Shown here: piece by piece, positions 6,134 to 59,646 of the stretch | Layout of the letters: every line of letters begins with the position of its first letter | Numbering within the stretch: position 1 is the first letter of the stretch | Origin: an alpha proteobacterium SCGC AAA536-G10 | GTDB taxonomy: Bacteria > Pseudomonadota > Alphaproteobacteria > Puniceispirillales > Marisalimonadaceae | Length of the DNA stretch: 64,000 bases | Assembly: GCA_000384615.1 (NCBI GenBank) | Contig: ARQU01000003.1 | Coordinates: forward strand, 104,751 to 168,750 | Reading direction: 5' to 3' | Made by a program: the position numbers and the translations under genes | The notes under the pieces: generated by a model | The model's input: only the letters and a program-made list of their open reading frames with translations | Told to the model about the DNA's origin: nothing | Database searches by the model: none

Positions 6134-6146
6134 AATAATGATAATA

Positions 6147-7421
6147 CTAAGATTTTTTATTTGAAGGAAGAGGAATACAGCTTAGACCTGAAGTCCATAG
6201 TTCTGCACAAACTGAGCGCGCCTGGTACTCAGCCAATTCAATAAATCTAACTCTCCATAAATATTCCAAACTTTTATTTTCATTGTTAGTTTTAGTTATT
6301 TTACTTAAAGAAGCAGGCAAATTACCAAGTTGCTCTGGAACAATATTTCTAGCATTACGGGCTGCTTTATGAGCATTTAATCTATTTTTAAAAGCACCTA
6401 TTTGTATAAACCAGTCATCATGTAAACTATTGGACAATGAAAGATTAACAACTTTAGTAGGTATATTAAAATTTTTTATATTTTTTTCTGTAATAGTTAG
6501 CTTAGGACGGTTTTTAGGTAGTTCCGATGGTTTTGCTATTCTAACAAGAGGTTTAGAAGGAACTGTTTTAAAGTATTTATTAAGTAACTTAATCATATGT
6601 TTATCACGTGAGCGTGCTTTTTTACCACCAAAAACAACACCAATAATTCTTTGACCGTTTCTTTCTACTGAAGCTACAAGATTGAAGCCAGAAGCATTAG
6701 TATAACCTGTTTTTATACCGTCAGTACCAGAATAACTACCTAATAAATTATTATGGTTGGTGTATTTAATACCTTTGTAAACAAAAGATTTAGTTTTAAA
6801 TAATTTAAATAAATTAGGATGTTTTTTTCTAATGGCCATACCTAGAATTGCCATATCTCTTGCTGTAGACAATTGTCCCCTATTAGGTAAACCCGATGCA
6901 TTTTTAAATATTGTACGTGTCATACCTAACTTTTTAGCTTTTTTAGTCATTAGTTTAGCAAAATTTCTTTCAGATTTCGCTAAGTTTTCTGAGACAACTG
7001 TGGCTACATCATTTGCTGATTTAGTGATCAAAGCTAAAATAGCATTTTTGACGGTGATTTTAGAGCCAGCAGCAAGATTTAACTTAGAAGGTGGTTGTCT
7101 TGCTGCACGTTTAGAAATTTTAAATTTAGTATTCATAGATATTTTTTTTGATTTTAGTGCATCAAATATCATATATAAAGTCATAATTTTTGTTAAAGAA
7201 GCTGGATAATTACGTGTGTCAGCATTTGTGTTATGGTAAATACGTTTAGTATTTTCATTTATAACAAAAGAAGCATATTTAGCATTAGCAGTAGATACAA
7301 AAATTAAAGAAGTCAGAATAAGTACAAAAAATTGGCTTAGATTTTTGAAATAAGACAAACTGTATTTTTTATAAGATAAAAATTTATGAAAACTCACTAT
7401 ATCAATGTAATTTTTAAACAA
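6147..7421 (-). CDS. D-alanyl-D-alanine carboxypeptidase (S11, PBP5/6-like) with C-terminal SPOR domain
   Basis: SxxK motif in PASLTKIMT, SxN-like SANDVA, KTGYT motif. The C-terminal WFIQIGAFKNRLNAHKAA... is typical of a SPOR domain. An N-terminal signal or anchor is present. Confidence 0.85.
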   Translation of the reverse strand: MFKNYIDIVSFHKFLSYKKYSLSYFKNLSQFFVLILTSLIFVSTANAKYASFVINENTKRIYHNTNADTRNYPASLTKIMTLYMIFDALKSKKISMNTKFKISKRAARQPPSKLNLAAGSKITVKNAILALITKSANDVATVVSENLAKSERNFAKLMTKKAKKLGMTRTIFKNASGLPNRGQLSTARDMAILGMAIRKKHPNLFKLFKTKSFVYKGIKYTNHNNLLGSYSGTDGIKTGYTNASGFNLVASVERNGQRIIGVVFGGKKARSRDKHMIKLLNKYFKTVPSKPLVRIAKPSELPKNRPKLTITEKNIKNFNIPTKVVNLSLSNSLHDDWFIQIGAFKNRLNAHKAARNARNIVPEQLGNLPASLSKITKTNNENKSLEYLWRVRFIELAEYQARSVCAELWTSGLSCIPLPSNKKS

Positions 7422-39535: not shown

Positions 39536-39612
39536 GGCGGAGTAGCTCAGCTGGTTAGAGCACCGGAATCATAATCCGGGTGTCGGGGGTTCAAGTCCCT
39601 CCTCCGCTACCA
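39536..39612 (+). tRNA. tRNA-Met (anticodon CAT; elongator type, Ile2-lysidine type not formally excluded)
   Basis: Hand-folded 77-nt cloverleaf. Acceptor GGCGGAG/CTCCGCT (G1-U72 wobble), D arm GCTC/GAGC, anticodon arm CCGGA-ATCATAA-TCCGG, variable loop GTGTC, T arm GGGGG-TTCAAGT-CCCTC, encoded CCA. It lacks the three consecutive G-C pairs at the base of the anticodon stem that mark initiator tRNAs. Confidence 0.9.
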
Positions 39613-39691
39613 AATAACAATCTGAATAATAAGCCACACCTCACTTGTTATAATTATAGAATCTCAGGATGTTTCATAAAAGTCAAAGCAA

Positions 39692-39707
39692 TTGTGACGG
39701 AGATGTG
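39692..39707 (+). repeat. Left copy of 16-bp direct repeat TTGTGACGGAGATGTG (candidate att core)
   Basis: Exact match to 53363-53378. The word is G+C-balanced in a very AT-rich context, and both copies lie within 80 nt of tRNA-derived repeats. Confidence 0.7.
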
Positions 39708-39790
39708 ACCGGTTTTAATTATTTTTTATCTCTTTTTTAGTAAATTCAAAAACTTAAAAAAAAAAGTTAAATAAATTCTAAATTGGGCCT

Positions 39791-39818
39791 TTTCTGGCGA
39801 TTCATAGCCTGATATAAT
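39791..39818 (+). promoter_or_regulatory. Candidate extended -10 promoter for the alpA-primase operon
   Basis: TGATATAAT (39810-39818) is a TGn-TATAAT extended -10. A weak -35-like TTCTGG lies at 39791-39796 with a 16-nt spacer. Confidence 0.45.
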
Positions 39819-39828
39819 ATAAATGTAA

Positions 39829-39907
39829 GGTGGGGACACCTGGCTGACATACGAGCCCAATCAGTATGGAACAACTTCAATTAACATCGTGGAAGTTGAA
39901 TCCCACC
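39829..39907 (+). ncRNA. Candidate structured RNA / 5' leader upstream of alpA (not a tRNA)
   Basis: Locally G+C-rich ~80-nt segment. The outer pairing is GGTGGG (39829-34) with CCCACC (39902-07). Internal hairpins are GGCT-N8-AGCC and CAACTTC (39872-78) / GAAGTTG (39892-98). It lies directly downstream of the candidate promoter. Confidence 0.3.
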
Positions 39908-39956
39908 CAAAAAAATCGATGCCTAATTTTTAAATTTAATTAAAAAGGAGGGCATT

Positions 39957-40166
39957 ATGGCTCTATTTGAAAATAAAACATACGCAAATGGAAAAGAAAT
40001 TCTTAAATTTTTTGGAGTTACTTCGGAAACAATAAAAGATTGGATGAAGAATAAAGATTTTCCAAAACCTATTACACCAACATCTAAAACAAGATTGTGG
40101 AGATGTTCAGAAATAGAAGATTGGCTTATGGAAATGGAAATAAGACGTGATGATGGAGACCTATAA
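39957..40166 (+). CDS. alpA: AlpA-family helix-turn-helix regulator / excisionase
   Basis: 69 aa with the characteristic ...FPKPI.......W..SEIEDWL... pattern. A strong SD AAGGAGGG precedes it, and its stop overlaps the primase ATG (TAATG). Confidence 0.8.
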   Translation: MALFENKTYANGKEILKFFGVTSETIKDWMKNKDFPKPITPTSKTRLWRCSEIEDWLMEMEIRRDDGDL

Positions 40167-42436
40167 TGCTATCTTTACAGTCTTATGGAAATGCAGCTTT
40201 GAAGTTGTATGAAAATGGTTATATCCCAATTCCAATTAAGCCATTAACAAAAAGACCAATTATTTCTGATTGGCCAAATATTAAGAACGATTATAACCAA
40301 ATTGAAAATCTATCTTCAAAATACCCACATGCAGGTGTGGGTGTTCTATTAAATGATTTAATTGCATTTGATATAGATATTCTAGATGAAACATTATGCC
40401 TCTTGGTAAAAAAAATAATAACTAATGAACTTGGGGATACTATTGAAAGGATTGGCAAATTCCCAAAGAGAGCTCTTTTTTATAGAAGAGTTGGTAAGGA
40501 ATTTAGGAAACAATCCTCTAAGATTTTCAACCTTACAAAGGGTAAAGCTCAATTAGAAATTTTAGCAACTGGCAATCAGTGTATTGCTTTTGGGACACAT
40601 CCAGAAACAAAGCAACCTTATCAATGGATTGAAGACAGTCTCTTAGACATTCACATCCAAGATCTTCCTAGCGTAAATATCAAACAAGTAAAAAATATTA
40701 TTACCCAAACTGAAATACTTTTACGTAATCAGATTGAACCTAAAGAAGAAGTTAGACCAACTATAAAGACAATAATATATGAAACCAAAAAGGAAGAGAG
40801 TTTTAAGGATAAATCCTTAATACGGGGTGCTATAAAACACATAGATCCAGAAGATTATTATACTTGGATAAAGATAGGTTTCGCACTTAAAAAGTATTTT
40901 AAAGATGAAGGCTTTGAAATTTTTGATACTTGGTCAAAATATAAAATAGATGGCTCTCCATGCCCTAATTACTATAATAAAGACTTTAATAGAGAGAAAT
41001 GGAAGTCATTTAATCCAGAAAAAATAGATAAAAGAAACATATTCAAACTTGCAATACAAAATGGCTGGCAAGGAGGTAGTATTTTTGAAATTGAAAGTAA
41101 TACACACACCTCAGTAGCAAAATATCTAAAAAAGCAATTTGAATTAGACGGCCCAATACCAGTCTACGATGAGGGAGAACTTTGGAAATATAATGGTTTG
41201 TGTTGGAAGCTTGTCCCTGATAGTGACTTAAGACAGTTAGTCCATGAACTTGATCAAAAGAAAACCAAATCAGGTAAGTTGATCCATGTAAGCAAACAGT
41301 TTATAGATGGCTGCCTTCATGAATTAATGTCAATGTGTTCGGAGCCAAATTTTTTTGAAGATCAACCAATGGGAGTAAACTGTAAGAACGGTTTTTTGGA
41401 GATATCTTTCGATAAAAAACCACGGTTGTTGGATCACGATCCAAATCATAAGCAAAGATTTATCTTTGATGCCAAATGGGATGATGAAGATTTTATATTT
41501 TCTGGATATTTGAAGAAATTAATAAACGGTTGTTTTTTTGGTTTAGATGAAATTGTCAAAGGTCAATTGATTAGGCTCATTCAACAAATCTTAGGAGTAA
41601 GTATTACTGGAATTGCAACTAAACTTTCTACACCAATGTGTTTTGTCCTATATGGTCCTTCTGCAACTAATGGTAAATCTCAGATCTTAGAATTAGTACG
41701 GTCTCTTTTACCGAAAGATGCTTGTTCATCCATACCTCCTGCTGATTTAGGTAAAGAACAATATTTAATAGAATTAGTTGGTAAAATGGCTAATTTATCT
41801 GATGAGTTATCAGGTGCTAATGCAATACGTTCAGATAAACTTAAAGCAGTTGTAACGGGCGATACTGTAACGGGTAAAAGGGTTTATAAACCAGTATGTT
41901 TATTTAAACCAAATGCTATTCATATATTTGCAACAAATGTTCTTCCTAATTTTAAGGGAGGAGTAGATGAAGGAATTAATAGAAGGGTTAAAGTTATACC
42001 ATTTGATCGATCTATTCCCGTGAATGAGAGAGTACCAAGAATTGCTGAAAAAATTATTTTAAATGAAAAAGATCAATTATTTAAGTTCGCTGTAAAAGGG
42101 GCATTGGATGTTATCGAAAATGATGGCTTTATTATCCCAGATACAGTTGAATTGTCTACAGCTCAATGGTTTGAAGATTCAGACTCAATATTGTATTGGT
42201 TTAAGGAAAATCACCTTCTTGATTTATTGGACAAAAGTAAAAGTAAAAAGGTAGGCATTACAGAGGCATATTCAAAATTTAAAGCACACATGGAGGAAAT
42301 GGGAGAAGGACAATATGTTCCGACTAGAAACAGATTTGCTCAAAGAATTAGGCAATTGGTCAGAGATGATGTTGATCTTGAAATGGGTAGGGACAAATAT
42401 TCTAACTACATAAGATATAAGCAATTGGTGTATTAG
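40166..42436 (+). CDS. Bifunctional primase-polymerase / P4-D5-type SF3 helicase (phage/plasmid primase, P4 family)
   Basis: N-terminal Prim-Pol (YENGYIPIPIKPLTKRPI..W, IAFDIDI acidic motif, HPETKQPYQW) and a PriCT-2-like region (YYTWIKIGFALKKYF...FDTWS). The C-terminal P4-family helicase has Walker A GPSATNGKS, Walker B NLSDE and the INRRVKVIPF tail. Confidence 0.9.
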   Translation: MLSLQSYGNAALKLYENGYIPIPIKPLTKRPIISDWPNIKNDYNQIENLSSKYPHAGVGVLLNDLIAFDIDILDETLCLLVKKIITNELGDTIERIGKFPKRALFYRRVGKEFRKQSSKIFNLTKGKAQLEILATGNQCIAFGTHPETKQPYQWIEDSLLDIHIQDLPSVNIKQVKNIITQTEILLRNQIEPKEEVRPTIKTIIYETKKEESFKDKSLIRGAIKHIDPEDYYTWIKIGFALKKYFKDEGFEIFDTWSKYKIDGSPCPNYYNKDFNREKWKSFNPEKIDKRNIFKLAIQNGWQGGSIFEIESNTHTSVAKYLKKQFELDGPIPVYDEGELWKYNGLCWKLVPDSDLRQLVHELDQKKTKSGKLIHVSKQFIDGCLHELMSMCSEPNFFEDQPMGVNCKNGFLEISFDKKPRLLDHDPNHKQRFIFDAKWDDEDFIFSGYLKKLINGCFFGLDEIVKGQLIRLIQQILGVSITGIATKLSTPMCFVLYGPSATNGKSQILELVRSLLPKDACSSIPPADLGKEQYLIELVGKMANLSDELSGANAIRSDKLKAVVTGDTVTGKRVYKPVCLFKPNAIHIFATNVLPNFKGGVDEGINRRVKVIPFDRSIPVNERVPRIAEKIILNEKDQLFKFAVKGALDVIENDGFIIPDTVELSTAQWFEDSDSILYWFKENHLLDLLDKSKSKKVGITEAYSKFKAHMEEMGEGQYVPTRNRFAQRIRQLVRDDVDLEMGRDKYSNYIRYKQLVY

Positions 42437-42526
42437 TGTATATATTTATCTGATAATTTTTTAATAAGAATAAAACTTGAAAAACTTTTGAGAAAATAAC
42501 CTACACTCCTACACCTGTGTTGCAAT

Positions 42527-42904
42527 TTATTTAATCCAATCTTTACGCCAATTCTTTTCTAAATGACCATGGTCCACGAACCAAGCTTCTAGCTCTTTTA
42601 ATTCACGTCGAATTATTCGTCCTTGCTCTGCTCTGGCTTTAGCTTTTGCTCGTTCTAATTTTGTAAATCTACCATGTTTAGTTTTTGAATCTGCTAATCT
42701 TTTCAAACCTTCCTTGGTCCTTGGGCCTGTGCTCGCACCTCCATGAAGTCTGCAACGACCGACAGGCAGTTTAGCTGGACGTTGACATGGTGTACCTTTT
42801 CGAGTTTTTGCTTCACATCTTTTGCCTTGCCAATTAGGCCCAAAACGCCAAGGTATACCTTTTAAAAGGTTTCTTTTTGTTATCTTGTCAATACCACCAA
42901 TCAT
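42527..42904 (-). CDS. HGGxSTG-domain protein (mobile-element associated, function unknown)
   Basis: 125 aa with CEAKTRKGTPCQRPA...GRCRLHGGASTGPRTKEG, the HGGxSTG signature, followed by a basic helical tail. Confidence 0.75.
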   Translation of the reverse strand: MIGGIDKITKRNLLKGIPWRFGPNWQGKRCEAKTRKGTPCQRPAKLPVGRCRLHGGASTGPRTKEGLKRLADSKTKHGRFTKLERAKAKARAEQGRIIRRELKELEAWFVDHGHLEKNWRKDWIK

Positions 42905-43142
42905 AGGGTTTTATTATACCACAAATTAATATGCTTATCAGCCGGGTGTTTACTTGAAACTAATGCTCATGGTCGGTGAATAATGATCAATCTCATATAA
43001 TTAGACATCAATACAACAAAAATTTTCTTTGGAGGATATGTCAGATAGTTATACATAGAAAAAATACTACTATTAACCCATCCTTACCTTAAAAGATTTA
43101 ATTGTATTTTAAGTAATTAAGTTTTTAATAATTTTTTAAATC

Positions 43143-44063
43143 TCAGGTGCCAACAGCTACCAGACCCAGAACCAACCGCTTCTTTCTAATCCTGTTCTCA
43201 CGCTTAACCGGAGAGTATAAAAACGATCTCATTGAATTTTTATTCACTTTAGTGGATTCAAGTTCTGGCTGCTTATTAAAGGGAAATGAGTATGTAAGAA
43301 TACCCTTGGTGACACTGCTTGTTCTATTTGAATCGTCAGTCGCAACGTTTAAAGTAAGCCTTTCGCTCAAAGTTAGATTAACTCCTGCCTCTGTACCTCT
43401 CTCTTTAAAACCTGCGCCATCAGACCAATTATACCCCCTGGCATATATTTCTGGGTTATAAGCAAAATCAGACTTAAAACTAATGGTATAGTCAAATCCA
43501 TCTAGAGCTGTCTCAGAAATACCTTCGTAAATACGAGTGTCAGTTAGAGCCCTGTAATAGTTAGCTCTTAAACCCACACCGTTACTTAGGGTCTCCGCGC
43601 CAAGCCCCCAACGCTTATGTCCTGAGCTGAACTCATTATCTAAAAATAAATTTGCGCCATAAAGCCAAGTCTCATTATCAGACAAAGTCCTGTAGCCAAG
43701 ACCGATATTCGCAGTGTTCCTTCCATCAACCCTTGATATACTTATTTGGTTAAAAACGGCATCGCTTTCCCCTTCATTAAGCTTGATAACAGCAGTAGCC
43801 TCGCCGCCTGTTTTGTTATCATTATTAAAAACAGAAACGGAAATGTGTTTAAGATTTTCTCCTGTAGCTTTTTCACTCATAGCTGTAGCTAAAGCGTTCA
43901 ATTTTGACACAGCAGCATCAACCAAGGACCCTTTAAGCTTTTTAGTATTAGACGACTGAGCATTTAGAGCATTAATTGGCAAAGTTACGGTAAAAACAAA
44001 CGTCAATAAAACGATGACTTTGTGTATAAAAACAGATTGGCTTTTTCCCATTTTATTCTCCAT
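43143..44063 (-). CDS. Inverse-autotransporter (intimin/invasin-type) beta-barrel domain protein without a passenger
   Basis: Signal peptide (…LPINALNA-QSS). The block VDGRNTANIGLGYR...LYGANLFLDNEFSSGHKRWGLGAE...LRANYY...ALDGFDY...YNPEIYARGY...VNLTLSERLTLNV...LTYSFPF...RSFLYSPVKRENRI aligns by eye with the intimin barrel (ANLGAGQRF..LGYNVFIDQDFSGNNTRLGIGGEY..INGYFR..PANGFDI..YPALGAKLMY..VNYTPIPLVT..RYDLVQRNNNI). The protein ends about 12 aa after the pore-linker motif. Confidence 0.75.
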   Translation of the reverse strand: MENKMGKSQSVFIHKVIVLLTFVFTVTLPINALNAQSSNTKKLKGSLVDAAVSKLNALATAMSEKATGENLKHISVSVFNNDNKTGGEATAVIKLNEGESDAVFNQISISRVDGRNTANIGLGYRTLSDNETWLYGANLFLDNEFSSGHKRWGLGAETLSNGVGLRANYYRALTDTRIYEGISETALDGFDYTISFKSDFAYNPEIYARGYNWSDGAGFKERGTEAGVNLTLSERLTLNVATDDSNRTSSVTKGILTYSFPFNKQPELESTKVNKNSMRSFLYSPVKRENRIRKKRLVLGLVAVGT

Positions 44064-44941
44064 TATTCCGCCTCCACCAAAAACTCAAATCCTCGCTGCA
44101 TAATCCCTGTGACACATCTATCACCGCCACCAACACCACAAGATGCGTGACCATTACTTTTCTGTCGAATTTTACCATTACCTGTTAGAGCAAAACTCAT
44201 TTTGATACGAGAGGTTGTATTGCTTATTATAGGTTGGTAACCAGTCTTAAAAGCCGAGATTCCAAGGAGATAGCGGGTGTCGTTATCTGAAGTTGATTGC
44301 GTGGTTTCCGCACTCAGCGCATATGAGTTATTTACTGCAAAAGTTTTATCATCTGCAGCACGCTCATAATTTGTTGCTCCAGCGTTTGAGGTCCATCTAT
44401 CCTTATCAGAAACCATATAACCAGGATTTGCATTGGCTGCTAAACCACAATCTATTGGTAAATTGGCAAACCCGTTTGCTTCATCAAAACTCTCACCTTC
44501 GAGCGTCCAACAAGTTGTCCCAGCTGTGTCAGATTTGCCACGCCTGTTTGTACTAAATGTGATTACGCCCTTTGAGTATAGTTTGTTTTCAACAAGAAGC
44601 ACGGAGTGCGTATATGTCCCTAACGGTAAAGAAAGATCAACGTTTGGGGCAACTGCGGCTTCACCGCCAAGTTCTACGCGCACTTGACTAGCGACGGCAG
44701 AATAAAACAACTGTTCACACACGGTTTGGTAGTTACTAACTGTTGGTGTTTGCTGGCATAGCCAGACACCGTGTAGGTTTAGGCCCATTGCCTGAGCATC
44801 GTTTTCACACTGGTTACTTGTATCCGTAACCACTCCCGAGCTCACAGTACAGTCAGCAGATTTAGCGGAGCCAACTAACCAAGATTGAGACATAAATAAA
44901 AAAAAGGTCACTATAAACAAATACTTCATATTATACCTCAT
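44063..44941 (-). CDS. Secreted Cys-rich protein of unknown function, translationally coupled to the barrel gene
   Basis: 292 aa with an N-terminal signal peptide (alternative start MKYLF at 44929), 8 Cys, and a Thr/Ser/Asn/Gly-rich beta-type composition. Its stop TAA overlaps the barrel ATG (TAATG at 44061-44065). G+C is high relative to the host (28/60 at 44101-44160). Confidence 0.7.
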   Translation of the reverse strand: MRYNMKYLFIVTFFLFMSQSWLVGSAKSADCTVSSGVVTDTSNQCENDAQAMGLNLHGVWLCQQTPTVSNYQTVCEQLFYSAVASQVRVELGGEAAVAPNVDLSLPLGTYTHSVLLVENKLYSKGVITFSTNRRGKSDTAGTTCWTLEGESFDEANGFANLPIDCGLAANANPGYMVSDKDRWTSNAGATNYERAADDKTFAVNNSYALSAETTQSTSDNDTRYLLGISAFKTGYQPIISNTTSRIKMSFALTGNGKIRQKSNGHASCGVGGGDRCVTGIMQRGFEFLVEAE

Positions 44942-45069
44942 AATTTATACTTAACCTGTTAACGGTATCAATTTAATACACATTTAATTTAAGGCAAGAG
45001 AAATAATCGTAATTTATAAAAAAATTAGTTTTATTAATTTTGATCTAATTTAATTAAAATTATTTTGTA

Positions 45070-46449
45070 TTAATTTATACATTTTGGTTCAAATCCAAAA
45101 TTTCTATCTACAAAATAAGCTGATTTTTTTGATTTCCACATTCCATCATTTGCAACTATGATATGATCTTTGTTTGTGTAGTTCTCAATTAACCAGTCTA
45201 ATGATATAGCCATTTGGTGAGTGTGATATGCGGCATGAGCTTTATCTTTTGTATGATTCCTCATTCCTGATGGATCTTTACGTTTTCTGTATGTTTTAAC
45301 GTCTGTAAGACCTAAGTTAAGTATATCCACAGTTTTATCAATTCTTTGCTTCAATTCTTTTGGAAACTGCTTATAACCCCATAGTTCAGCTATAGCATAT
45401 AGTCCTAGCAAATTGTTTACACCTTGTGAGTGATACCATACATCTCTAACACCTCTGAAACTATTGTTATGAATATATCCGTCCCTGTAAACAACCTTAT
45501 CAGCTTTAGCAATTCCTTTTTGAATCCATCTTGCTACTTGCTCTGGTTTGTTTTTCCAAGCTAAATATGATAAAATACCAATAGTTCCGTCAGCCAATTG
45601 AATAAAACCTCTGGTATGCTTATCTAGCTTCATAGCCTTAATAGCTAACGGTTTGACATATTTTCTGTATAAAGTATCAATATACTCGTCAACAATTTTA
45701 AATTGTTCTTTGGTAAATTGATCTTTCATCAAATATGCTTGTTGCATATAAGTGGCTCCGTATATTTGAGCTTCATGTGGTCTATGCGAGATGCAAGGTT
45801 TAGTACCGTCACCTGTACCATTTCCGTAACATAGTCTATCAACTTTGCCTTGATCTTTTAATTTGCTAATTTCTTTAGAAGTTAATGTATTTAACATGAC
45901 ACTTGCTTCTGCCCAGGCTACCATAACTTCAGCAATAAGTGGACCATGCTCGTCCATTTTGTTATTCACTATTGAATAAACAATAGTTCCATGCAGTAAT
46001 GCTAGTCTATTAGAATGTTTTTCGTGATTAACATATATACTATTTGATCTTAGTTCATGATCCTTGTTCCAATCATACTCAGTAAGTTGCATTAGGTGAT
46101 CATAGTTATTTCCTTGAAGGTCAGGATTTTTTGACTTGCTCACGTGTGTTATAGCAAGATCCATCTCCCAATATGCTTTACCCCAACTTCCATGACCATG
46201 CACACCTTCTAGTGAGCAAGTTTTTTTTGTAAGTTTGTTTGCGAAGAAATATTTTGGAATAACAATATCATTCTTTGGCATTGACGAGATTACTTTTACC
46301 GTTGTTTGGCAACCTATCAATTTTAGTATAATCAGTATAAAAAGAATACCTTTGAAAAAAGATAACCAATATATACCGTAATGAGACATATGCACTTTTT
46401 TCCTAAAAGCTTCACAATAAGACATATGCCATTTGATAATCTGATCCAT
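45070..46449 (-). CDS. Predicted lipoprotein, unknown function; weak resemblance to alginate-lyase/heparinase-type polysaccharide lyases
   Basis: A lipobox-like LKLIGC follows a hydrophobic segment (probable start MSHYG at 46389). The helix-rich body has an FRGVRDVWYHSQGV segment reminiscent of the R...YH catalytic segment of PL5-type lyases. The functional call is speculative. Confidence 0.55.
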   Translation of the reverse strand: MDQIIKWHMSYCEAFRKKVHMSHYGIYWLSFFKGILFILIILKLIGCQTTVKVISSMPKNDIVIPKYFFANKLTKKTCSLEGVHGHGSWGKAYWEMDLAITHVSKSKNPDLQGNNYDHLMQLTEYDWNKDHELRSNSIYVNHEKHSNRLALLHGTIVYSIVNNKMDEHGPLIAEVMVAWAEASVMLNTLTSKEISKLKDQGKVDRLCYGNGTGDGTKPCISHRPHEAQIYGATYMQQAYLMKDQFTKEQFKIVDEYIDTLYRKYVKPLAIKAMKLDKHTRGFIQLADGTIGILSYLAWKNKPEQVARWIQKGIAKADKVVYRDGYIHNNSFRGVRDVWYHSQGVNNLLGLYAIAELWGYKQFPKELKQRIDKTVDILNLGLTDVKTYRKRKDPSGMRNHTKDKAHAAYHTHQMAISLDWLIENYTNKDHIIVANDGMWKSKKSAYFVDRNFGFEPKCIN

Positions 46450-46574
46450 AATATTTTTCTATTTATCATAACAATTTAACTAAATTATCTTTAATTTCAA
46501 ACAAATTTACCTAACAGTAATCTTACCAACGTAACTACCAACTCCAATCCATGCTCTATCGACTACGGTCAATG

Positions 46575-46667
46575 GGCAGACCACCCCTTGACCATTGTCA
46601 TAAGTTGATTAGGAATAGGGTGCAGTAACCCTTCGTTTAATATATTCCTAGCTCGTCAGGCTCATAA
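46575..46667 (+). repeat. Copy 1 of a ~95-nt imperfect direct repeat (integrase-arm-like blocks + tRNA-fMet-like core)
   Basis: Conserved blocks GGCAGACCACCC (46575-86), TTGATTAGG (46605-13), GGTGCA and TAGCTCGTCAGGCTCATAA (46649-67) recur in the same order and spacing at 52308-52398. Confidence 0.7.
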
Positions 46668-46711
46668 CCTTAAGGTCGTAGGTTCAAATCCTACCCCCCC
46701 CCCCGCAACCA
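46649..46711 (+). pseudogene. 3' two-thirds of an initiator-type tRNA-fMet gene (fragment, with expanded C tract)
   Basis: TAGCTCGTCAGGCTCATAACCTTAAGGTCGTAGGTTCAAATCCTAC-C(11)-GCAACCA matches the D-stem 3' strand, anticodon arm (CAT), T arm and acceptor 3' strand of bacterial initiator tRNA. No 5' acceptor or D-arm precedes it. The acceptor C run is 11 nt (46694-46704) instead of about 5. Confidence 0.75.
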
Positions 46712-46851
46712 ACTTATTTTATAAAATCAATAAGTTATACGCACATCAAGAACTTCGGTTTTTGGGGTTTTTTTGCGTTTTAAGCCTGATAAGGGTTTCA
46801 CCATGCCAACCATCGTGCCAACCAGTCGTCAGGTTTATTCCATTTTAATGA

Positions 46852-47133
46852 TCATAATTCATATTGTTTATACTTCTTAGCATGCTTAATAAGTTCTGCC
46901 TTATATTCTTCAGCAGAATTACAAACTTGTTCAAATTCTAAAAAATATAATTTTTGATTTGATAAAGCAAAGTATCCTTTAACTTGTAACTTCTCCATTT
47001 TTGCATTTTTGTCTTCAATGCCATGTTGAGCATTTAATGTTGATACAATTGAATTAGAATGGTCATCATTCATGTGTTCAATTATTCTATTAGATGCATT
47101 TATAAGCCAATTAGGTACTTTGCTATCATTCAT
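46852..47133 (-). CDS. DUF2470-family protein (HugZ C-terminal-like small domain)
   Basis: 93 aa with IIEHMNDDHSNSIVSTL, which matches the HMN.DH signature of DUF2470. Confidence 0.6.
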   Translation of the reverse strand: MNDSKVPNWLINASNRIIEHMNDDHSNSIVSTLNAQHGIEDKNAKMEKLQVKGYFALSNQKLYFLEFEQVCNSAEEYKAELIKHAKKYKQYEL

Positions 47134-47205
47134 TTAAATATCTCTAATTAATTATTACTTATCTATCATATCACGTATTTAAATAAATTCATTACGATAT
47201 AGCGA

Positions 47206-47598
47206 TCAAATTTTAAACAGAATATCCCAACCAGTAACAAGCACCATTAAGTTTAAAAATGCTATTATAGCAGGGGCGACGTACCCTTCAGCAGATGTCT
47301 TTACGCCATCAACAGAACCCCAATAACTATGGATAGTTTGAAAGCAAACAACAGCGCCAATACATGCTTGCACAAAACCATAGACAAATAGTAGCCAAGC
47401 ACCTTCGATAGAAGTGAATAAAGCAATAGCTAGTGTTACTGAAAAGCCGGCAGCAAAAGTACCAACAAGTCTTGTCATAATTGCACTACCTTCACCGAAG
47501 CCATATTTCTCAATGTACTTGCGTGTTTGGAAAATACATTGATAAGCATAAACCAAATTTCCAAATATTATAATTAGTATGAGTGAAAAAATTAGCAT
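47206..47598 (-). CDS. Integral membrane protein (4 predicted TM helices), unknown function
   Basis: 130 aa, almost entirely hydrophobic helices. No recognisable family. Confidence 0.5.
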   Translation of the reverse strand: MLIFSLILIIIFGNLVYAYQCIFQTRKYIEKYGFGEGSAIMTRLVGTFAAGFSVTLAIALFTSIEGAWLLFVYGFVQACIGAVVCFQTIHSYWGSVDGVKTSAEGYVAPAIIAFLNLMVLVTGWDILFKI

Positions 47599-47874
47599 GT
47601 TAGTTTAGATCTCCAACCCTTTCAATTAGGGGACAGATTTTCCATAAAATTAACACCCATCTAAAGCATAATCACAAAAGAATAACAAAAACTTGGCTGG
47701 GTAAATACTTAATATTAATATAGGCTTATTTAATTATTTGTAAATAAGTTGGTTTCAGTTGTTAAATTGGTTTAAAAGATACATTATATGTGTGAATAAT
47801 GATGGCTAAGGAAAATATCGAACATAAAACAGTAAGTTATTTTTTGATTGAAGTTTACTAAAATACATATTGTT

Positions 47875-49041
47875 CTAAAAAAATATATTTAACGTTAAAG
47901 TGATTGCATCATCATCCGATAGCTGCCCAAATGTAGACGTGGTTGTGCGTGCATTATAAAACTGGCTGGTCAATTTGACACTGGTGACATCATTGATCCG
48001 TCGCGACGCTTCCAAAGAGGCAAAGGACTGATCCGTTTTACGATCCAACGATGCCAAAAATAAAAAATTACTGTCTGCAATGTCATTAAATACAAGCCTT
48101 ACACCCGCAACACCAAATTGATTAGCTGCGGCCTGTGGACGGTCGTCATGTTGAATTTCACCAATCAAGCCAATATCCCATATTGTTTCAAATGCTCCGT
48201 AATAAGTATATTCAATCCCCGCAACAGCCGCCGCAAAATCATGAGCGCCAATTAAGCTGCTTTGGGTGCCATGAAGGCTTTCCCATTTGAGCAATGTAAC
48301 ATCGCCAGTATATTGAGCTTCAAATCCTATTGATTTTTGTAAAGCGTAATGTGGGTTTAATGCGCTTCCATTACTGTTGACAGACAAAATGGGATCACGA
48401 GCGGTACCGTAAAAAACACTTCCTGCTAGATCCCAATCTCCAGCAAAGCTAGACAAGCGTGCCGCAAAGTCATCTGCATCCTTGCCATTCTTACGCGCAT
48501 ATTGTGCAGAACTGACTGGAACTCCACTACTTGGATGCGCGTCACTATCATTAAATGTTTTTTCTCGAAAACGAGAAATATACCAAAGCTGCAGGTTACC
48601 AACATCTAGATAGCGTTCAGCAGATATAGATGGTGCCCCAAGTTTACCTGATTTACCATCATTTGCTGCAGCATCGGACTGATTAATAACATCAACAACA
48701 TTTTTACTTTCTGCCTTACCCCAAAATTCCTGACGATTTCCAACAAAAAAATCAAATCCGGCAAAGGGACTGCGAAAATAAGCCTGTCGAGCTTCAGTGA
48801 TCCGGCGACCACTATCTTTTTTATCCCCACGGAAAATGAATTCACCCACAATTCGACTTTTGTCAAAATCATGAAAGGCATCAATCTTTACTTCCACCGA
48901 GCGTCCTTCTGACGCCGTACCATCAGCATGATCAGGATAAAAATCTAGCCGTGATGAAAGCGTGCCATTAACTTTACCAGCAAAAGCCGGTTGTGTTAAC
49001 AAAAGGACAATAGCAAAGCAACGAGCATAATACGTAATCAT
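47875..49041 (-). CDS. Outer-membrane beta-barrel protein (third gene of the RND/LolA-like operon)
   Basis: Signal peptide (…TQPAFA-GK), alternating beta-strand pattern, C-terminal LTLNIFF with terminal Phe (OMP signature). A 4-nt overlap with the upstream LolA-like gene indicates an operon. Confidence 0.7.
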   Translation of the reverse strand: MITYYARCFAIVLLLTQPAFAGKVNGTLSSRLDFYPDHADGTASEGRSVEVKIDAFHDFDKSRIVGEFIFRGDKKDSGRRITEARQAYFRSPFAGFDFFVGNRQEFWGKAESKNVVDVINQSDAAANDGKSGKLGAPSISAERYLDVGNLQLWYISRFREKTFNDSDAHPSSGVPVSSAQYARKNGKDADDFAARLSSFAGDWDLAGSVFYGTARDPILSVNSNGSALNPHYALQKSIGFEAQYTGDVTLLKWESLHGTQSSLIGAHDFAAAVAGIEYTYYGAFETIWDIGLIGEIQHDDRPQAAANQFGVAGVRLVFNDIADSNFLFLASLDRKTDQSFASLEASRRINDVTSVKLTSQFYNARTTTSTFGQLSDDDAITLTLNIFF

Positions 49042-49823
49042 CGTGTCCGTTTCAATGTGGATTTTTCAAAATCACGTTCGGTCATACCGGTCTGAAACTT
49101 CCAATCGGCAAACACGAGTTCCGTTTTCTTGCCTGTCTGGTGATTAATCATAACCAAACGATTAGACCGCCAGAATTTATCTAGATATTGATTATAATCT
49201 TCATAGGTCAAGGTTTTCAAAAGTGCGTCTTTGCGGTCATAGAAATCAATTTTGTGAACGCGGTACTCAGCTTTATCCATCCAAACAATCTGGCGCTTAT
49301 AGCCACTTTTGCGATCAACCGGATCATATTCAACAACAAAACACTCAAGACCATTCAACTCTTCATCACGCAGATAATTATAGGTGTATTTTTCAACTTC
49401 CTGACTAGCGATATCTTCATACGAAAATTCACTACCCATAAAAGGACCTGCCTTATTTGACGATGCGATACGCTTAACGCGTTTCAGAGCTGGCAAATAT
49501 AGCCATTGGTCATCCGAATCAGCCTTTTTTGTGTGCGAAAGGAAAGCTGTGCCGCGCACATCACCCGGACTATCAAATATTACAAGAGACTTATCACCTT
49601 CATTATAACCCTCAAACGTTCTATTACGGATTGTACGTTCAGTTGATTGCCCATATTTGTCCATTAGGATCATTGTTATCTGTGCGGTTGAATCACCAAA
49701 CCCCTTGTCGCGGCTATCGGCTTCAATCGCAATCTCTAGTCCTTTTTTAGGCGAGGCAAATGCCGCTGTTATCATAACGGCAGTGGTAATAGCGACAAAC
49801 ATGGTTACAGTACCGAGTTTCAT
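49038..49823 (-). CDS. LolA-like outer-membrane lipoprotein-sorting family protein
   Basis: Track ORF extends to 49880, but the probable start is MKLGTVTMFVAI (49823), which gives a signal peptide. The conserved block DKSLVIFDSPGDVRGTAFL...DDQWLYLPALKRVKRIASSNKAGPFMGSEFSYEDI is typical of the LolA_like family. Confidence 0.8.
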   Translation of the reverse strand: MKLGTVTMFVAITTAVMITAAFASPKKGLEIAIEADSRDKGFGDSTAQITMILMDKYGQSTERTIRNRTFEGYNEGDKSLVIFDSPGDVRGTAFLSHTKKADSDDQWLYLPALKRVKRIASSNKAGPFMGSEFSYEDIASQEVEKYTYNYLRDEELNGLECFVVEYDPVDRKSGYKRQIVWMDKAEYRVHKIDFYDRKDALLKTLTYEDYNQYLDKFWRSNRLVMINHQTGKKTELVFADWKFQTGMTERDFEKSTLKRTR

Positions 49824-49851
49824 TTTAGTCTCCTTAGACAACATCATGAGC

Positions 49852-52182
49852 TTAAGCATTTTGTGGTGCTTCTTTAACACCTATTATTGGTGTGGTTTCT
49901 TTTTTATCCTTATCAAGGGCAATCAGCAAAGCAGGGAGCAAAGTCATATCGGCAATTAAAGCTATAACAAGGGCTATGCCTGTTAACATTGCCATATTGC
50001 TGTTCACGCCAAAGGTTGATTGAGCCAGAATAGCAAAACCAGCTGTTAGTATCAGAGTTGTAACAACGAGTGCCGTTCCAACACCTTTGAAAGCCGAAAT
50101 GACAGCATCATGCGCAGACAGTTTTAATTCGCGTCGAGCAATCTGATATTTGCTGAGAAAATGAACACTATCGTCAACCACAACGCCAAGCGCCATACCC
50201 GCAACAACAGCGACAGCCATATTGACCTGCCCCACAAGCAAACCCCAAAGGCCAAAGGCGAGTGCCGCAGGCAGCAAATTAGGTATCAAGCTGATGATTC
50301 CAAGCCGGACATCACGTAAGGCAATTAGAATAACACCACTAATCAGAAAAACAGCAATAAGGGTTCCTAGCAACATACTTTGAATATTACGTTCGGAAAT
50401 ATAGGCAAACATCACAGTAGGTCCGACAGCTGTCAGGTTAAAATCAAGCTCATCCGCAAGGTAGCTTTCAGCCCGAGCAATCCAGGCACGAAGTTCATTC
50501 GTGGTCATATCGTCTATTGTAACAATGACCTGTGTTGATGATTTGCTTATATCAAGTTGATTGTTCAAATCCAAACCGAATGGCAACGATAGCTCATATA
50601 AAAGTAGATATTGGGCGGCAAGTTCGCGCGTATCAGGCACCTGGTAAAAAGCTGGGTCACCAGCGTTCAGATCACGATTAAGACGCTTGAAGGTGTCCGA
50701 AATAGATTGTACATGTGTTACCACAGGCTCATTATTCGCCCAGGCGGTAAAATTAGATACTTTTTCAATAAAGACCGGATCGCTAATACCATTGGATTCG
50801 CCAGTAGGCAAACTAAATTGCACCTGATTGACACCAGTTAGATTGCGACTGATCCAGTCGGTATCTTGACGATACTGGACTGACTCGTCAAAATATTTAA
50901 CAAAGTCATCATTGATTTCATTGAGTGGAATAAGTGACAGAATACTAACTGAGATAATAACACTGGCAGTTAGAACCGACTTATAACGCGAAGCGACGTA
51001 GACACCAAGCTTTCCCATTTTATCATCAAGCCTTGCCAAGGTGGCTTTTGATTTCAGCGGAACGAAGCTAATGAGAATAGGTAATAGAACGATTGAAAAT
51101 ATCCAGGCAGCCATAACACCTATGGCTGTTATATTACCCAGGTCGTGAAACGGTGGGGAATCTGAAAAATTCATCGACAGAAAACCCAGAGCCGTTGTCA
51201 GACTAGTTAGAAAAATAGGTTTACCATTAACTCGTATACTGTAAAGCAAGCTGTCGCGTTGACTATGCCCTGCCCGCATCCGGTTGAACATACTTACCAA
51301 TAAATGGATTGCGTCGGCGACCGCAAGGGTGGTGATAATGGTTGGTGCACTGGCAGATGGAGGCGTTAGGCCAATGCCCATCCACCCACCAGCGCCCATA
51401 GCTACAATGATACTTGGCACAACAACAAACAGCACCAAAAATGTTGCCATTATCGATCTAAGCAATAAATAAGCGACAATTAAAATAACCAAGTACATCG
51501 CCGGCACCAATGTTGCCATGTCTAGCATTGATGATTCCAGAAACGCGTTATTCAGAAATATAACACCTCCCAAGCGAATTTTGACATTATGTTTAGCTTC
51601 GATCTCGGCAGCCATTTCGCGTGCAGCGGCTGCCACAATGGCAACCTCGTCAGCGCTTTTACCTGGCATCTGAATGGTTGCATTTACGGATGTGGCCCGA
51701 TGTTGCTTATCATGAATTTTTCCTTCCAGAGCCGGCTCAGTCGTACTCACACGATCAACCAAAGCTTGTTCATTAGCGTTCATTGACATTGCATCAGTAT
51801 ATAAATCTCGCACAATCAGATCATCACCTTCAACCTCGGTATGCTGATGATTTGACAGGCTATCAACTCGGATGGAAAAAGGAAGTTGCCATGCAATGTC
51901 AGTCAACTCCTCAACAGCGGCCAGCACCTCAGGCGCATTAGCTTTGCCTGAAATTGGATCAACAGCAAAGTTAACGTTATCTATCTTGGTATAGGTCTGC
52001 TGGATTTTTTCAAATGCTTTAAGTTGAGGATTTTCTTTTCCAAAAAACACTCTGTAATCATTGTCAAAATAAAGAAATTGGGTTCCTACGGCAGCAAGCA
52101 AGGATACAGCTGTAATAAGACCTAAAACTAGAAATCTATATTTAAGTATCCACTCGCCGTAAGAGCCATTTTGCTGTGACAT
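49852..52182 (-). CDS. RND-superfamily exporter (MMPL / HpnN-like, COG1033-type)
   Basis: 776 aa. Two 6-TM bundles are each preceded by a large periplasmic loop. The SSD-like TM region is LTSLTTALGFLSM and the second half contains GVVVDDSVHFL. G+C is high (32/60 at 50161-50220). Confidence 0.85.
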   Translation of the reverse strand: MSQQNGSYGEWILKYRFLVLGLITAVSLLAAVGTQFLYFDNDYRVFFGKENPQLKAFEKIQQTYTKIDNVNFAVDPISGKANAPEVLAAVEELTDIAWQLPFSIRVDSLSNHQHTEVEGDDLIVRDLYTDAMSMNANEQALVDRVSTTEPALEGKIHDKQHRATSVNATIQMPGKSADEVAIVAAAAREMAAEIEAKHNVKIRLGGVIFLNNAFLESSMLDMATLVPAMYLVILIVAYLLLRSIMATFLVLFVVVPSIIVAMGAGGWMGIGLTPPSASAPTIITTLAVADAIHLLVSMFNRMRAGHSQRDSLLYSIRVNGKPIFLTSLTTALGFLSMNFSDSPPFHDLGNITAIGVMAAWIFSIVLLPILISFVPLKSKATLARLDDKMGKLGVYVASRYKSVLTASVIISVSILSLIPLNEINDDFVKYFDESVQYRQDTDWISRNLTGVNQVQFSLPTGESNGISDPVFIEKVSNFTAWANNEPVVTHVQSISDTFKRLNRDLNAGDPAFYQVPDTRELAAQYLLLYELSLPFGLDLNNQLDISKSSTQVIVTIDDMTTNELRAWIARAESYLADELDFNLTAVGPTVMFAYISERNIQSMLLGTLIAVFLISGVILIALRDVRLGIISLIPNLLPAALAFGLWGLLVGQVNMAVAVVAGMALGVVVDDSVHFLSKYQIARRELKLSAHDAVISAFKGVGTALVVTTLILTAGFAILAQSTFGVNSNMAMLTGIALVIALIADMTLLPALLIALDKDKKETTPIIGVKEAPQNA

Positions 52183-52307
52183 TAAAGCACCTTTTAAAAT
52201 TACAAACTAAGTTGAAAGTATCGTTGATAAACAATATTCAAGAAATAAATACTTCAACACAAAAAAATACAAAAATAGCTTAATAAGTTAGATTTGCCAA
52301 ATAAATT

Positions 52308-52398
52308 GGCAGACCACCCTTTAACTAAATTTCAATCTTGATTAGGTAATTGGTGCATTTACAAATAAGAATGATTGATTAGCTCGTTAGGCTCATAA
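52308..52398 (+). repeat. Copy 2 of the imperfect direct repeat; tRNA-fMet-like core overlaps the integrase stop codon
   Basis: GGCAGACCACCC (52308-19), TTGATTAGG (52338-46), GGTGCA and TAGCTCGTTAGGCTCATAA (52380-98). The integrase TGA (52393-95, minus strand) lies inside the CTCATAA anticodon-loop equivalent. Confidence 0.7.
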
Positions 52399-53349
52399 TT
52401 TAGCATTAACTTGAACATATCTAAACAACTGACTAGCCGTCTTATGACCACTAATTGATGCAACTTCTGGTACGTTTAATCCTTTTTCAAACATCCTTGA
52501 TATAGCTTCATGCCTTAAATCATGAAAAGTAAAGTCAATTAAGTTTGCTCTATTACGAAGCCTTTCCCAAGATTGTCTTAAAGCTACATCAGTAATAGGG
52601 AACACATGGTCAGTGGTCCGTGGAACTTGGCTCAATATATCTATAGCTTTTTTAGTAAGAGGCACCCATCTTGAACTACCATTCTTTGTTAATGGTAATA
52701 AGACTCTTTGATTATCAATGCCAATATGTTCCCACTTCATGCCTAAAATCTCACTCCGTCTCATTCCTGTTTCAATAGCAAAATCGATAATGAGCCATAG
52801 ATACCAAACCTTTGTTTCAGAGGATGCTCTCTTTAATCTTTCATATTCACCAGGTTTTAATCTTCTTTCTCTTGGAGGATTATTTTTAGGCAGTCTTATT
52901 TTTTCAACTGGATTATCACCTAAGCTCCAACCCCATTCTATACATGCAATGTTCCATGCATGTCTGATCAAAACTAGATCATACTGACAAGCTCGAACTC
53001 CATCCTTAAGTCTTCTGTCCCTAAAAGCAGCCAGAATATGGGGGTGGAGTCTTTCTAAGGGTAAGTTCATAAGATCTTTTTCTTTAAGTAACCTTCTTAA
53101 CCTTTGATCCTCTGAAATGAACCCTCTTTTCTTTGGTGTAATTTCATATTTATATTTTGTGATAAGAGAATGAAGAGTGAATGAATGCTCTTTGATCCTT
53201 GACCATTGACCTGATTGCATTAAGACTTCTTGTTTTTTTGCCCATTTCTGAGCATCTAATTTACTATGAAATGATTTTGATATAGACCCTATGTGTTTGC
53301 TTCTTACTTGTGCTTGCCATAAGTTATTTCTTTTACGAAAACTAGCCAC
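52393..53349 (-). CDS. int: Tyrosine site-specific integrase (intact)
   Basis: 318 aa, GTG start after GGAGGG. N-terminal arm-binding-like MASFRKRNNLWQAQVR. Catalytic residues are in ETGMRRSE (Arg), HDLRHE (His-x-x-Arg), GHKT (His) and LFRYV (Tyr). Confidence 0.9.
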   Translation of the reverse strand: MASFRKRNNLWQAQVRSKHIGSISKSFHSKLDAQKWAKKQEVLMQSGQWSRIKEHSFTLHSLITKYKYEITPKKRGFISEDQRLRRLLKEKDLMNLPLERLHPHILAAFRDRRLKDGVRACQYDLVLIRHAWNIACIEWGWSLGDNPVEKIRLPKNNPPRERRLKPGEYERLKRASSETKVWYLWLIIDFAIETGMRRSEILGMKWEHIGIDNQRVLLPLTKNGSSRWVPLTKKAIDILSQVPRTTDHVFPITDVALRQSWERLRNRANLIDFTFHDLRHEAISRMFEKGLNVPEVASISGHKTASQLFRYVQVNAKL

Positions 53350-53362
53350 TTTTTTCCCTCCG

Positions 53363-53378
53363 TTGTGACGGAGATGTG
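53363..53378 (+). repeat. Right copy of 16-bp direct repeat TTGTGACGGAGATGTG (candidate att core)
   Basis: Exact match to 39692-39707. It overlaps the hairpin CTCCGT-TGTG-ACGGAG (53358-53373) located just upstream of the integrase SD and GTG start. Confidence 0.7.
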
Positions 53379-53430
53379 GCAGCTAATTTACATTAGTAAA
53401 AATATTGTTATTAAACAGAGAGTTATAAGT

Positions 53431-53488
53431 TTAGAGCACCGGAATCATAATCCGGGTGTCGGGGGTTCAAGTCCCTCCTCCGCTACCA
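53431..53488 (+). repeat. Direct repeat 2: exact copy of tRNA-Met positions 39555-39612 (att remnant)
   Basis: 58/58 identity, checked by hand, from the D-loop/D-stem 3' side through CCA. Confidence 0.95.
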
Positions 53489-53538
53489 AAAAATCAGTAA
53501 AATCAATAGTTTATAAAATCATTGCTCAGTGGTCTTGA

Positions 53539-54554: not shown

Positions 54555-55016
54555 TTAAACTCCACTTTTTCTTGGGGGATCCTCTTTTATTTTATTAAAG
54601 ATTGGTGAGGTCTCAAATTTTGCATCTATTTCATTTTTTGAAAAGTATGCTTTTGATCTACAAAAAACTTCCCTCTTTATGTCATACCAAAATGTAGGTG
54701 GGTCAAATGTTCCTCCACCAATACCAGTCATATCTTTGAAAATGTCCGCATTCCAAAAAACTGATGTCCCGCATTCAACACAAAACTTTGTTGCCACTAA
54801 ATTTCCAGATTCCGTTGTATATTCAAATTTTTTTAAATCGCCAGACAATAATTCTACATTTACACTTTTAAAATAGACTGATATGCCAAATGCCGACCCA
54901 GTTCTTAATTGACAATATCTGCAGTGACAAACTGCAGAATGTTCTGGTTTTCCGATTGTTTTATAACGAACATTTCCACATGCACAACCTCCCTTATTTA
55001 ATATTTTATCTGACAT
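54555..55016 (-). CDS. GFA-family (glutathione-dependent formaldehyde-activating / CENP-V-like) zinc protein
   Basis: Zinc-binding Cys pattern GGCACGNVRY...CHCRYCQ...C.ECGT is typical of the GFA domain. Confidence 0.8.
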   Translation of the reverse strand: MSDKILNKGGCACGNVRYKTIGKPEHSAVCHCRYCQLRTGSAFGISVYFKSVNVELLSGDLKKFEYTTESGNLVATKFCVECGTSVFWNADIFKDMTGIGGGTFDPPTFWYDIKREVFCRSKAYFSKNEIDAKFETSPIFNKIKEDPPRKSGV

Positions 55017-59244: not shown

Positions 59245-59646
59245 ATGAGAATTGAAGGTGGATGCTACTGTGGTGAAATTAGGTACGTCTCTAATGGAGA
59301 CGCCCAAGCTTCAGTTCAGTGCCATTGTAGGGAATGTCAATATATTACTGGAGGACATCCCAACGTTTTAATGATCATGCCGTTAGATGGATTTAAATTT
59401 CTATCTGGCAAGCCTAAAGAATTTAAAAGAAATGATTTAGAAAATTCAATGACTCGCTTATTTTGTAGTAAATGCGGTACTGCTATTGGAACAAGAAACC
59501 CAATGAGACCAAATTCAATTATTTTGAAAGTAGGTACCTTTGATGATCCAGCTATTTTTGAACCTGAAATAGCTATTTTTACGTCTGATAAACAAAAATT
59601 TCATTATATTGATGATAATGTAAAGTCTTTTGATAAAAAGCCTTAA
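59245..59646 (+). CDS. GFA-family zinc protein (second copy in the window)
   Basis: GGCYCGEIRY...CHCRECQ...C.KCGT pattern; paralogous to 54555..55016. Confidence 0.8.
   Translation: MRIEGGCYCGEIRYVSNGDAQASVQCHCRECQYITGGHPNVLMIMPLDGFKFLSGKPKEFKRNDLENSMTRLFCSKCGTAIGTRNPMRPNSIILKVGTFDDPAIFEPEIAIFTSDKQKFHYIDDNVKSFDKKP

Follow-up and report, generated by a model that had tools for sequence, protein, structure and literature searches.

The window analyzed here is a 64,000-nucleotide stretch of DNA from the alpha proteobacterium SCGC AAA536-G10 (contig ARQU01000003.1, positions 104,751 to 168,750 of the forward strand), and it carries two adjacent genes that we propose to read as one system. One encodes an outer-membrane β-barrel of the inverse autotransporter, or type Ve, class that has no passenger domain (the barrel), and the other encodes a secreted, Cys-rich protein of an unnamed family (the partner). 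From the linkage of these genes across many genomes, we infer that the barrel may export or anchor its partner and that the two proteins may interact physically. Specifically, we tentatively favor the view that the pair represents a two-partner variety of type Ve secretion, with the barrel exporting or displaying a separately encoded protein, a reading we regard as plausible though well short of secure.

To our knowledge, research on type Ve secretion has dealt almost entirely with enteric pathogens, in which the barrel carries its own adhesin. SAR11, in whose core genomes the commoner form of the pair resides, comprises the most abundant marine bacteria.

The barrel protein is a complete type Ve translocation unit

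The barrel matches the Pfam family IAT_beta (PF11924) with an E-value of 1.4e-30 (107.3 bits against a cut-off of 22.3), in an alignment that runs from residue 36 to residue 290 and spans profile positions 12-279 of 279. This HMMER search bears out the original prediction, made by eye, that the protein aligns along the whole intimin/invasin β-barrel. The linker that traverses the pore had been aligned in the same manner, and a family-profile alignment agrees by placing 'VKRENkI' opposite 'VQRNNNI' of the intimin/invasin linker. The linker arginine and the motif 'VKRENxI' are conserved among 24 members of the barrel family, and a profile of these members retrieves invasin (4E1T, E 2.7e-26) and intimin (4E1S, E 1.4e-21) from the PDB. 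Source annotations of the barrel-family proteins read 'hypothetical protein' or 'adhesin/invasin'.

An AlphaFold2 model of the barrel has a mean predicted local distance difference test (pLDDT) score of 78, and along the barrel strands (residues 70-260) the majority of 10-residue blocks score 85-97. The model contains 12-13 strands, one short helical turn and, at residues 293-297, a last strand, in agreement with the 12-strand barrel that had been anticipated. When this model is used as a Foldseek query, the best matches are again 4E1T (E 2.7e-15) and 4E1S (E 4.9e-15), with target-normalized template modeling (TM) scores of 0.79-0.82. These are followed by 12-strand porins such as KdgM and NanC, and FapF is also among the structural matches. 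An N-terminal helix of about 25-35 amino acids (residues 39-64, pLDDT 43-61) precedes the first strand. Ahead of it lies a Sec signal peptide that can be read from the sequence; cleavage sites are predictions for both proteins of the pair, and that of the barrel is expected at about ALNA-QS.

At the opposite end of the protein, the pore linker SPVKRENRI is followed by a short strand and then by an 8-residue hydrophobic tail, LGLVAVGT. The C terminus lies 14 residues past the linker motif, rather than the approximately 12 counted originally, and 8 residues past the final strand. The accompanying claim that no passenger is present stands, as no Big, Ig, lectin, Intimin_C or Invasin_D3 domain is found in the barrel with Pfam and NCBIfam models. 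In Pfam at E<=1, the sole match beyond IAT_beta is a sub-threshold one to Arch_flagellin (14.7 bits, cut-off 29.5). The NCBIfam models for SinH, Ilp, YchO, Inv and intimin match the barrel core alone, scoring 24-59 bits versus cut-offs of 508-2400. The fused C-terminal passenger seen in classical inverse autotransporter adhesins is missing. Intimin requires the strand immediately past its linker, which pairs with loops 4 and 5, for stability (PMC13078405), and our barrel has a counterpart of this strand. Because the barrel protein ends so soon after this counterpart, it is a complete type Ve translocation unit and nothing more.

Homologs argue against loss of a passenger

A different account, raised together with the original prediction, is that the barrel gene is a 3'-truncated classical inverse autotransporter gene that lost its passenger at a recombination junction on a genomic island. 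The gene is indeed located on mobile DNA, and an AT-rich spacer follows its stop codon. However, all 63 of the 63 homologs in our first homolog search belong to the same length class (180-326 amino acids) and carry PF11924 alone. Barrel homologs end 15-25 residues past the linker, and their C-terminal tail is conserved as an [ST]-G-hydrophobic motif that is kept between clades only about 25% identical elsewhere. The barrel is under purifying selection, with ratios of nonsynonymous to synonymous substitution rates (dN/dS) of 0.21 in the comparison with locus L001 and 0.11-0.13 among SAR11 core copies; across both genes the range is 0.09-0.32. Furthermore, an independent single-cell genome of an alpha proteobacterium, SCGC AAA536-K22 (locus L006), holds the same pair with differences from the window at only 4 of 1355 positions, and the core-genome orthologs of Pelagibacteraceae share the same barrel-only architecture.

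The G+C content of the region had been described as donor-like and as falling away exactly at the barrel stop codon. The first part of this description holds, since G+C is 43.3% in the partner gene and 39.6% in the barrel gene versus 29.9% outside the island. The second part does not, because the AT-rich stretch is only a 238-nucleotide spacer and the next gene (42527-42904) again has 40.5% G+C, and for this reason the G+C argument for a recombination junction fails. Homolog lengths, tail conservation, dN/dS values and the G+C content of the next gene led us to reject truncation, which we consider extremely improbable.

The partner represents a family of secreted Cys-rich proteins

The partner was originally described as a 292-amino-acid protein with a signal peptide, 8 Cys residues and no recognizable family. 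These features are as described: the N-terminal signal peptide can be read from the sequence, the 8 Cys residues follow it, and the protein is acidic (pI 4.9) and contains many Thr, Ser, Gly, Ala and Asn residues. Its length is probably 288 amino acids instead, because homologs begin at MKYLF, which corresponds to the ATG at 44929. The partner has zero matches among Pfam or NCBIfam models, none of 40 sampled family members has a Pfam match, and a partner profile searched against the PDB yields nothing below E 0.25.

At E<=1e-3, a full HMMER profile scan of 1.84 billion representatives places at least 499 clusters (50% identity) in the partner family; at E<=1e-10 it places 235. Neither Pfam nor NCBIfam has a model for this family. 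A word-indexed search with a mixed partner alignment gave only 13 proteins, and the SAR11 core partners were not among them. Close homologs of the window partner are few, and the genes beside distant barrel homologs are related to it. The Cys count is even in 40 of 40 family members (4, 6, 8 or 10), and the partner probably contains disulfide bonds. In Pelagibacteraceae, the partners are secreted proteins of 357-381 amino acids whose whole-length alignment with the window partner is collinear, including six Cys residues; hhalign relates the window and SAR11 core partners with 96.6% probability (E 6e-10, 216 columns). The C terminus of the partner is also conserved (K-x-G-A-D-P-…).

Barrel and partner genes are linked near-obligately

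Both open reading frames of the pair lie where the original prediction placed them, head to tail on the minus strand, with one base of the sequence TAATG common to both (Table 1). The translational overlap itself depends on the choice of start codon. The initial codons at 44051-44063 vary among near-identical barrel copies (MEN in the window, MDY in L006 and MEI in P0016), so the real start may be the second ATG (MGKSQS…), which is 12 nucleotides further on. The genes overlap by 1 nucleotide if the first ATG is used and are separated by an 11-nucleotide gap if the second is used. A scan for promoters and terminators around the pair gave no more sites than shuffled sequence did.

The linkage is demonstrated by a reverse test, for which 80 metagenome loci were fetched with the partner alignment. 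A barrel-only IAT gene is directly upstream on the same strand in 74 of the 80, and five of the remaining six loci have fewer than 65 nucleotides of upstream sequence before the contig edge. The barrel therefore adjoins the partner in 74 of 75 informative loci. The first Met codon of the partner is located 1-8 nucleotides past the barrel stop codon in 72 of 73 loci. No open reading frame among the 80 loci contains both domains, and no barrel fusion occurs among the best 150 of the 499 partner-family representatives (75-394 amino acids). The pair is found in DNA whose G+C content ranges from 30 to 62%.

Similar results are obtained when loci are sought with the barrel. In every case, clades L005 and L012-L018 have a tightly adjacent gene on the same strand whose product has a signal peptide and lacks a Pfam match. 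A partner gene adjoins the barrel gene on the same strand, partner first, in the window, L001, L006, L019 and L020, and barrel first in L002, L003, L005, L007-L012, L016 and L018. The neighbors in L005, L012, L016 and L018 match the partner hidden Markov model, and those in L013 and L017 are remote homologs of the L005/L018 type (hhalign 95%, E 2.7e-8). Thus, the synteny that the original prediction envisaged is present, with barrel-only homologs adjoining partner homologs in every lineage examined except the L014/L015 clade, and we conclude that the linkage of barrel and partner is near-obligate.

One could suppose that the two genes are co-regulated and otherwise independent, such that the barrel works alone as a minimal outer-membrane protein, for example as a plugged porin, structural protein or phage receptor, and the partner is an unrelated secreted protein encoded in the same operon. 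The 12-strand porins KdgM and NanC that rank after intimin and invasin in the Foldseek search fit this idea. Against it, the adjacency survives divergence to about 25% identity, G+C contents of 30-62%, inversion of gene order and island transfer, and such persistence is rare for functionally unrelated genes. In addition, a spacing of 1-8 nucleotides or an overlap points to a selected stoichiometry. Given this co-inheritance across deep divergence, order inversion and horizontal transfer, we judge independence of the two genes to be quite improbable.

Locus L053 (137-3376) carries a barrel, a partner, a remnant of a barrel C terminus (profile positions 262-301, at 2209-2394) and a second full partner. 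This tandem duplication shows a way in which partner paralogs can arise beside a single barrel.

The pair occupies a core locus in SAR11 and an island in the window

In SAR11 core genomes, the gene order is proteorhodopsin, methyltransferase, barrel (about 298 amino acids), partner, NAD kinase (convergent) and glycerol kinase. This position is fixed across Pelagibacteraceae genomes and metagenome contigs alike (L002, L003 and L007-L011). The NAD kinase neighbor is kept even in contig L005 with its 62% G+C content, a hint that the core locus has long been inherited vertically. Barrel then partner is the commoner form and is a core-genome pair in Pelagibacteraceae, so the pair is not confined to mobile DNA.

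The order partner then barrel, as found in the window, recurs in L001, L006 and L101-L104, and in the 50%-identical P0071 type (L019, L020). Barrels of the window type share only 28-35% identity with those of the core type. The window copy is a diverged, higher-G+C, order-inverted and horizontally carried version of the Pelagibacteraceae core pair. A comparison of window positions 43143-44929 with L001 positions 5119-6902 gives synonymous divergence (dS) values of 0.055 for the partner and 0.21 for the barrel, and this fourfold difference between adjacent genes suggests recombination within the pair.

Table 1. Coordinates of the pair, its neighbors and the island features in the window.
Feature	Coordinates	Strand	Remarks
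Barrel gene	43143..44063	(-)	306 aa; ORF
Partner gene	44063..44941	(-)	292 aa; ORF; probable real start 44929 (288 aa)
459-aa protein, lipoprotein-like signal (…LKLIGC)	45070..46449	(-)	Without family match; upstream neighbor of window-type pair
HGGxSTG-domain protein, 125 aa	42527..42904	(-)	NF041373 E 5e-16; directly 3' of barrel
tRNA-Met gene and left att repeat (39555-39617)	39536..39617	(+)	ARAGORN; 63-nt direct repeat, 98% identical to 53431-53493
AlpA-like regulator	39957-40166	(+)	PF05930
P4-family primase/helicase	40166-42436	(+)	PF09250, PF08707, PF19263, TIGR01613
Tyrosine integrase	52393-53349	(-)	PF00589 E 1e-26
Right att repeat	53431-53493	(-)	Direct repeat; closes 13.9-kb island
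aa, amino acids; nt, nucleotides; ORF, open reading frame; att, attachment site.

A gene for a 459-amino-acid protein precedes the pair, in the order 459-residue protein, partner and barrel, in the window and in L101-L104, where the flanks are partly different. Because of this recurrence, the protein is a possible third member of the window-type cassette. It has no Pfam, NCBIfam or PDB match, and its gene is absent from SAR11 core loci. A 125-amino-acid gene occupies the position of the HGGxSTG gene in L102-L104 as well. The context of primase and AlpA genes is shared by the window, L103 and L104, and other flanks are present in L101, L102 and L001.

The assignment of the pair to a mobile element is well founded. 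The 3' part of tRNA-Met is repeated directly over 63 nucleotides (98% identity, copies 13,876 nucleotides apart), and the island so bounded (39555-53493) contains an integrase, an AlpA-like gene and a P4-type primase. Its att repeats, tyrosine integrase and deviant composition are those of a tRNA-integrated genomic island. The G+C content of the island is 36.9% versus 29.9% outside, and it is a mosaic of maintenance genes at about 30-33% and two cargo blocks at 40-45%. The second of these blocks (47875-52182, minus strand, 41-43% G+C) encodes a 388-amino-acid porin-like protein that matches no family and resembles OprD only weakly, a LolA_like/DUF1329 protein (PF17131, E 1e-66) and a transporter of the MMPL/RND type, and it looks like a three-gene envelope export module. 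Just outside the island are two paralogous genes for glutathione-dependent formaldehyde-activating (GFA) proteins (PF04828, E about 9e-28 each), at 54555-55016 (minus strand) and 59245-59646 (plus strand).

A proposed two-partner mechanism and its chief rival

The pair is a two-gene outer-membrane module, in which the barrel is a complete type Ve translocator domain without a passenger and the partner, a member of an unnamed family, is exported separately through Sec and probably disulfide-bonded. Its genes form one transcription unit and are translationally coupled. If the module is a two-partner variety of type Ve secretion, the barrel would be inserted by the β-barrel assembly machinery (BAM) and the translocation and assembly module (BAM/TAM), and its linker and short conserved C-terminal tail would fill the pore and reach the cell surface. 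It would then export the partner or hold it at the surface, in place of a fused passenger such as that of intimin. With a C terminus that is short and free, the linker could be a reversible plug, and the barrel tail and the conserved partner C terminus are candidate contact elements. Because the window copy is carried by an integrative island of 13.9 kb at tRNA-Met, it would probably provide its host with an extra or alternative surface module.

Several observations weigh against export or display of the partner by the barrel. Two concern the linkage: locus L032 has 971 nucleotides upstream of its partner without a barrel, and the neighbor of the L014/L015 barrel clade has no detectable relation to the partner family. 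Structural information on the partner is of little help, as its AlphaFold2 model, built from a 13-sequence alignment, has a mean pLDDT of only 45, and a Foldseek search from this model was uninformative. The remaining points concern the route. A closed barrel of 12 strands whose pore is occupied by the linker would offer only a narrow passage, and three to five disulfides in the partner (with loops of up to about 50 residues) would hinder passage if formed in the periplasm. Moreover, the barrel offers no extracellular Ig-like domain on which the partner could dock, unlike ZirT.

These points bring forward the chief rival to our reading, a periplasmic or outer-membrane complex that forms without export. 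Here the partner would fold and oxidize in the periplasm and bind the N-terminal helix or the periplasmic turns of the barrel, which would be a membrane anchor only, for example in an envelope-structural or sensing role. Even Cys counts fit oxidative folding in the periplasm, the helix of approximately 25 residues (39-64) before the first strand could provide a contact, the closed pore would be filled by the barrel's linker like those of 4E1S and 4E1T, and the tight linkage is explained equally well. However, the helix is modeled with low confidence, and the conserved extracellular tail motif would be left without a role. In addition, every member of the barrel family studied so far is a surface-display device (PMC4943183, PMC13078405). 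On balance, we consider a complex without export unlikely, though it deserves to be taken seriously.

A broader scenario builds on the two-partner interpretation and is more speculative still, such that we regard it as doubtful when taken as a whole. In this scenario, the pair is the ancestral minimal type Ve form, its linker is a reversible plug, and a separate disulfide-bonded protein is exported or displayed as a core surface feature of SAR11. Classical adhesins would have arisen later by passenger fusion, and the island copy would be a mobile alternative allele that possibly alters susceptibility to phages and grazers.

Comparison with known systems

The barrel shares with the β-domains of intimin and invasin (4E1S, 4E1T) its Pfam family, 12-strand fold, linker motif and strand after the linker. 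Unlike these proteins, it has neither the LysM periplasmic domain nor the D00-D3 passenger. It is closer in form to the short-tailed inverse autotransporters, which consist of the β-domain plus a few residues and which were described together with 'two-partner inverse autotransporters' (ZirT/ZirS) by Heinz et al. 2016 (PMC4943183). These authors suggested that the short-tailed group is a possible origin of the superfamily.

The pair also resembles ZirT/ZirS/ZirU of Salmonella and SinH/SinI, in which an IAT_beta barrel is encoded beside one or more signal-peptide proteins without a barrel of their own (PMC4943183). As in those systems, a signal-peptide protein that lacks a barrel is co-encoded with an IAT barrel here. 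Export of the partners by the barrel has been proposed for both, and for ZirT, which exports the co-encoded ZirS and ZirU, it has been reported (PMC4943183). The idea of export by the barrel is therefore not new in kind. Nevertheless, ZirT and SinH keep Ig-like extracellular domains of their own, which their partners resemble (PMC4943183), whereas the barrel described here is passenger-less and its partner belongs to a Cys-rich family without a detectable Big or Ig signature. In further contrast to ZirT and SinH, the gene order can invert, and the hosts are free-living marine oligotrophs rather than enteric pathogens.

A dedicated non-Ig partner family, a SAR11 distribution and island-borne copies were not found in the available portion of Heinz et al. 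2016 (PMC4943183). A literature search for Pelagibacter combined with invasin, intimin or inverse autotransporter listed 15 papers, none with a mention of Pelagibacter. Likewise, we found no description of a Cys-rich, non-Ig partner family strictly paired with passenger-less barrels, of a core Pelagibacteraceae pair beside proteorhodopsin, or of island-borne, order-inverted copies.

A more distant likeness exists to type Vb secretion (FhaC/FHA) and to FapF/FapC, in both of which the product of a separate, co-transcribed gene is exported through an outer-membrane barrel that is dedicated to it and closed by a removable plug. FhaC is a 16-strand Omp85 protein with POTRA domains whose substrate carries a TPS domain, and FapF is trimeric and has a coiled coil; the barrel described here is of a different family from either. 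Specifically, neither the barrel nor the partner matches the Omp85, POTRA or TPS families of type Vb in Pfam at E<=1.

Beyond the Pelagibacteraceae core, mobile islands and other marine lineages also carry the pair. Should the barrel indeed export or hold its partner, the arrangement would bear on the cell-surface content of SAR11 and hence on its interactions with phages and grazers. It would also bear on the origin of inverse autotransporters, an idea raised and left open in 2016, and would offer a model for whether a 12-strand barrel with a linker plug acts on a separately encoded substrate. It would then be the simplest two-partner type V system known.

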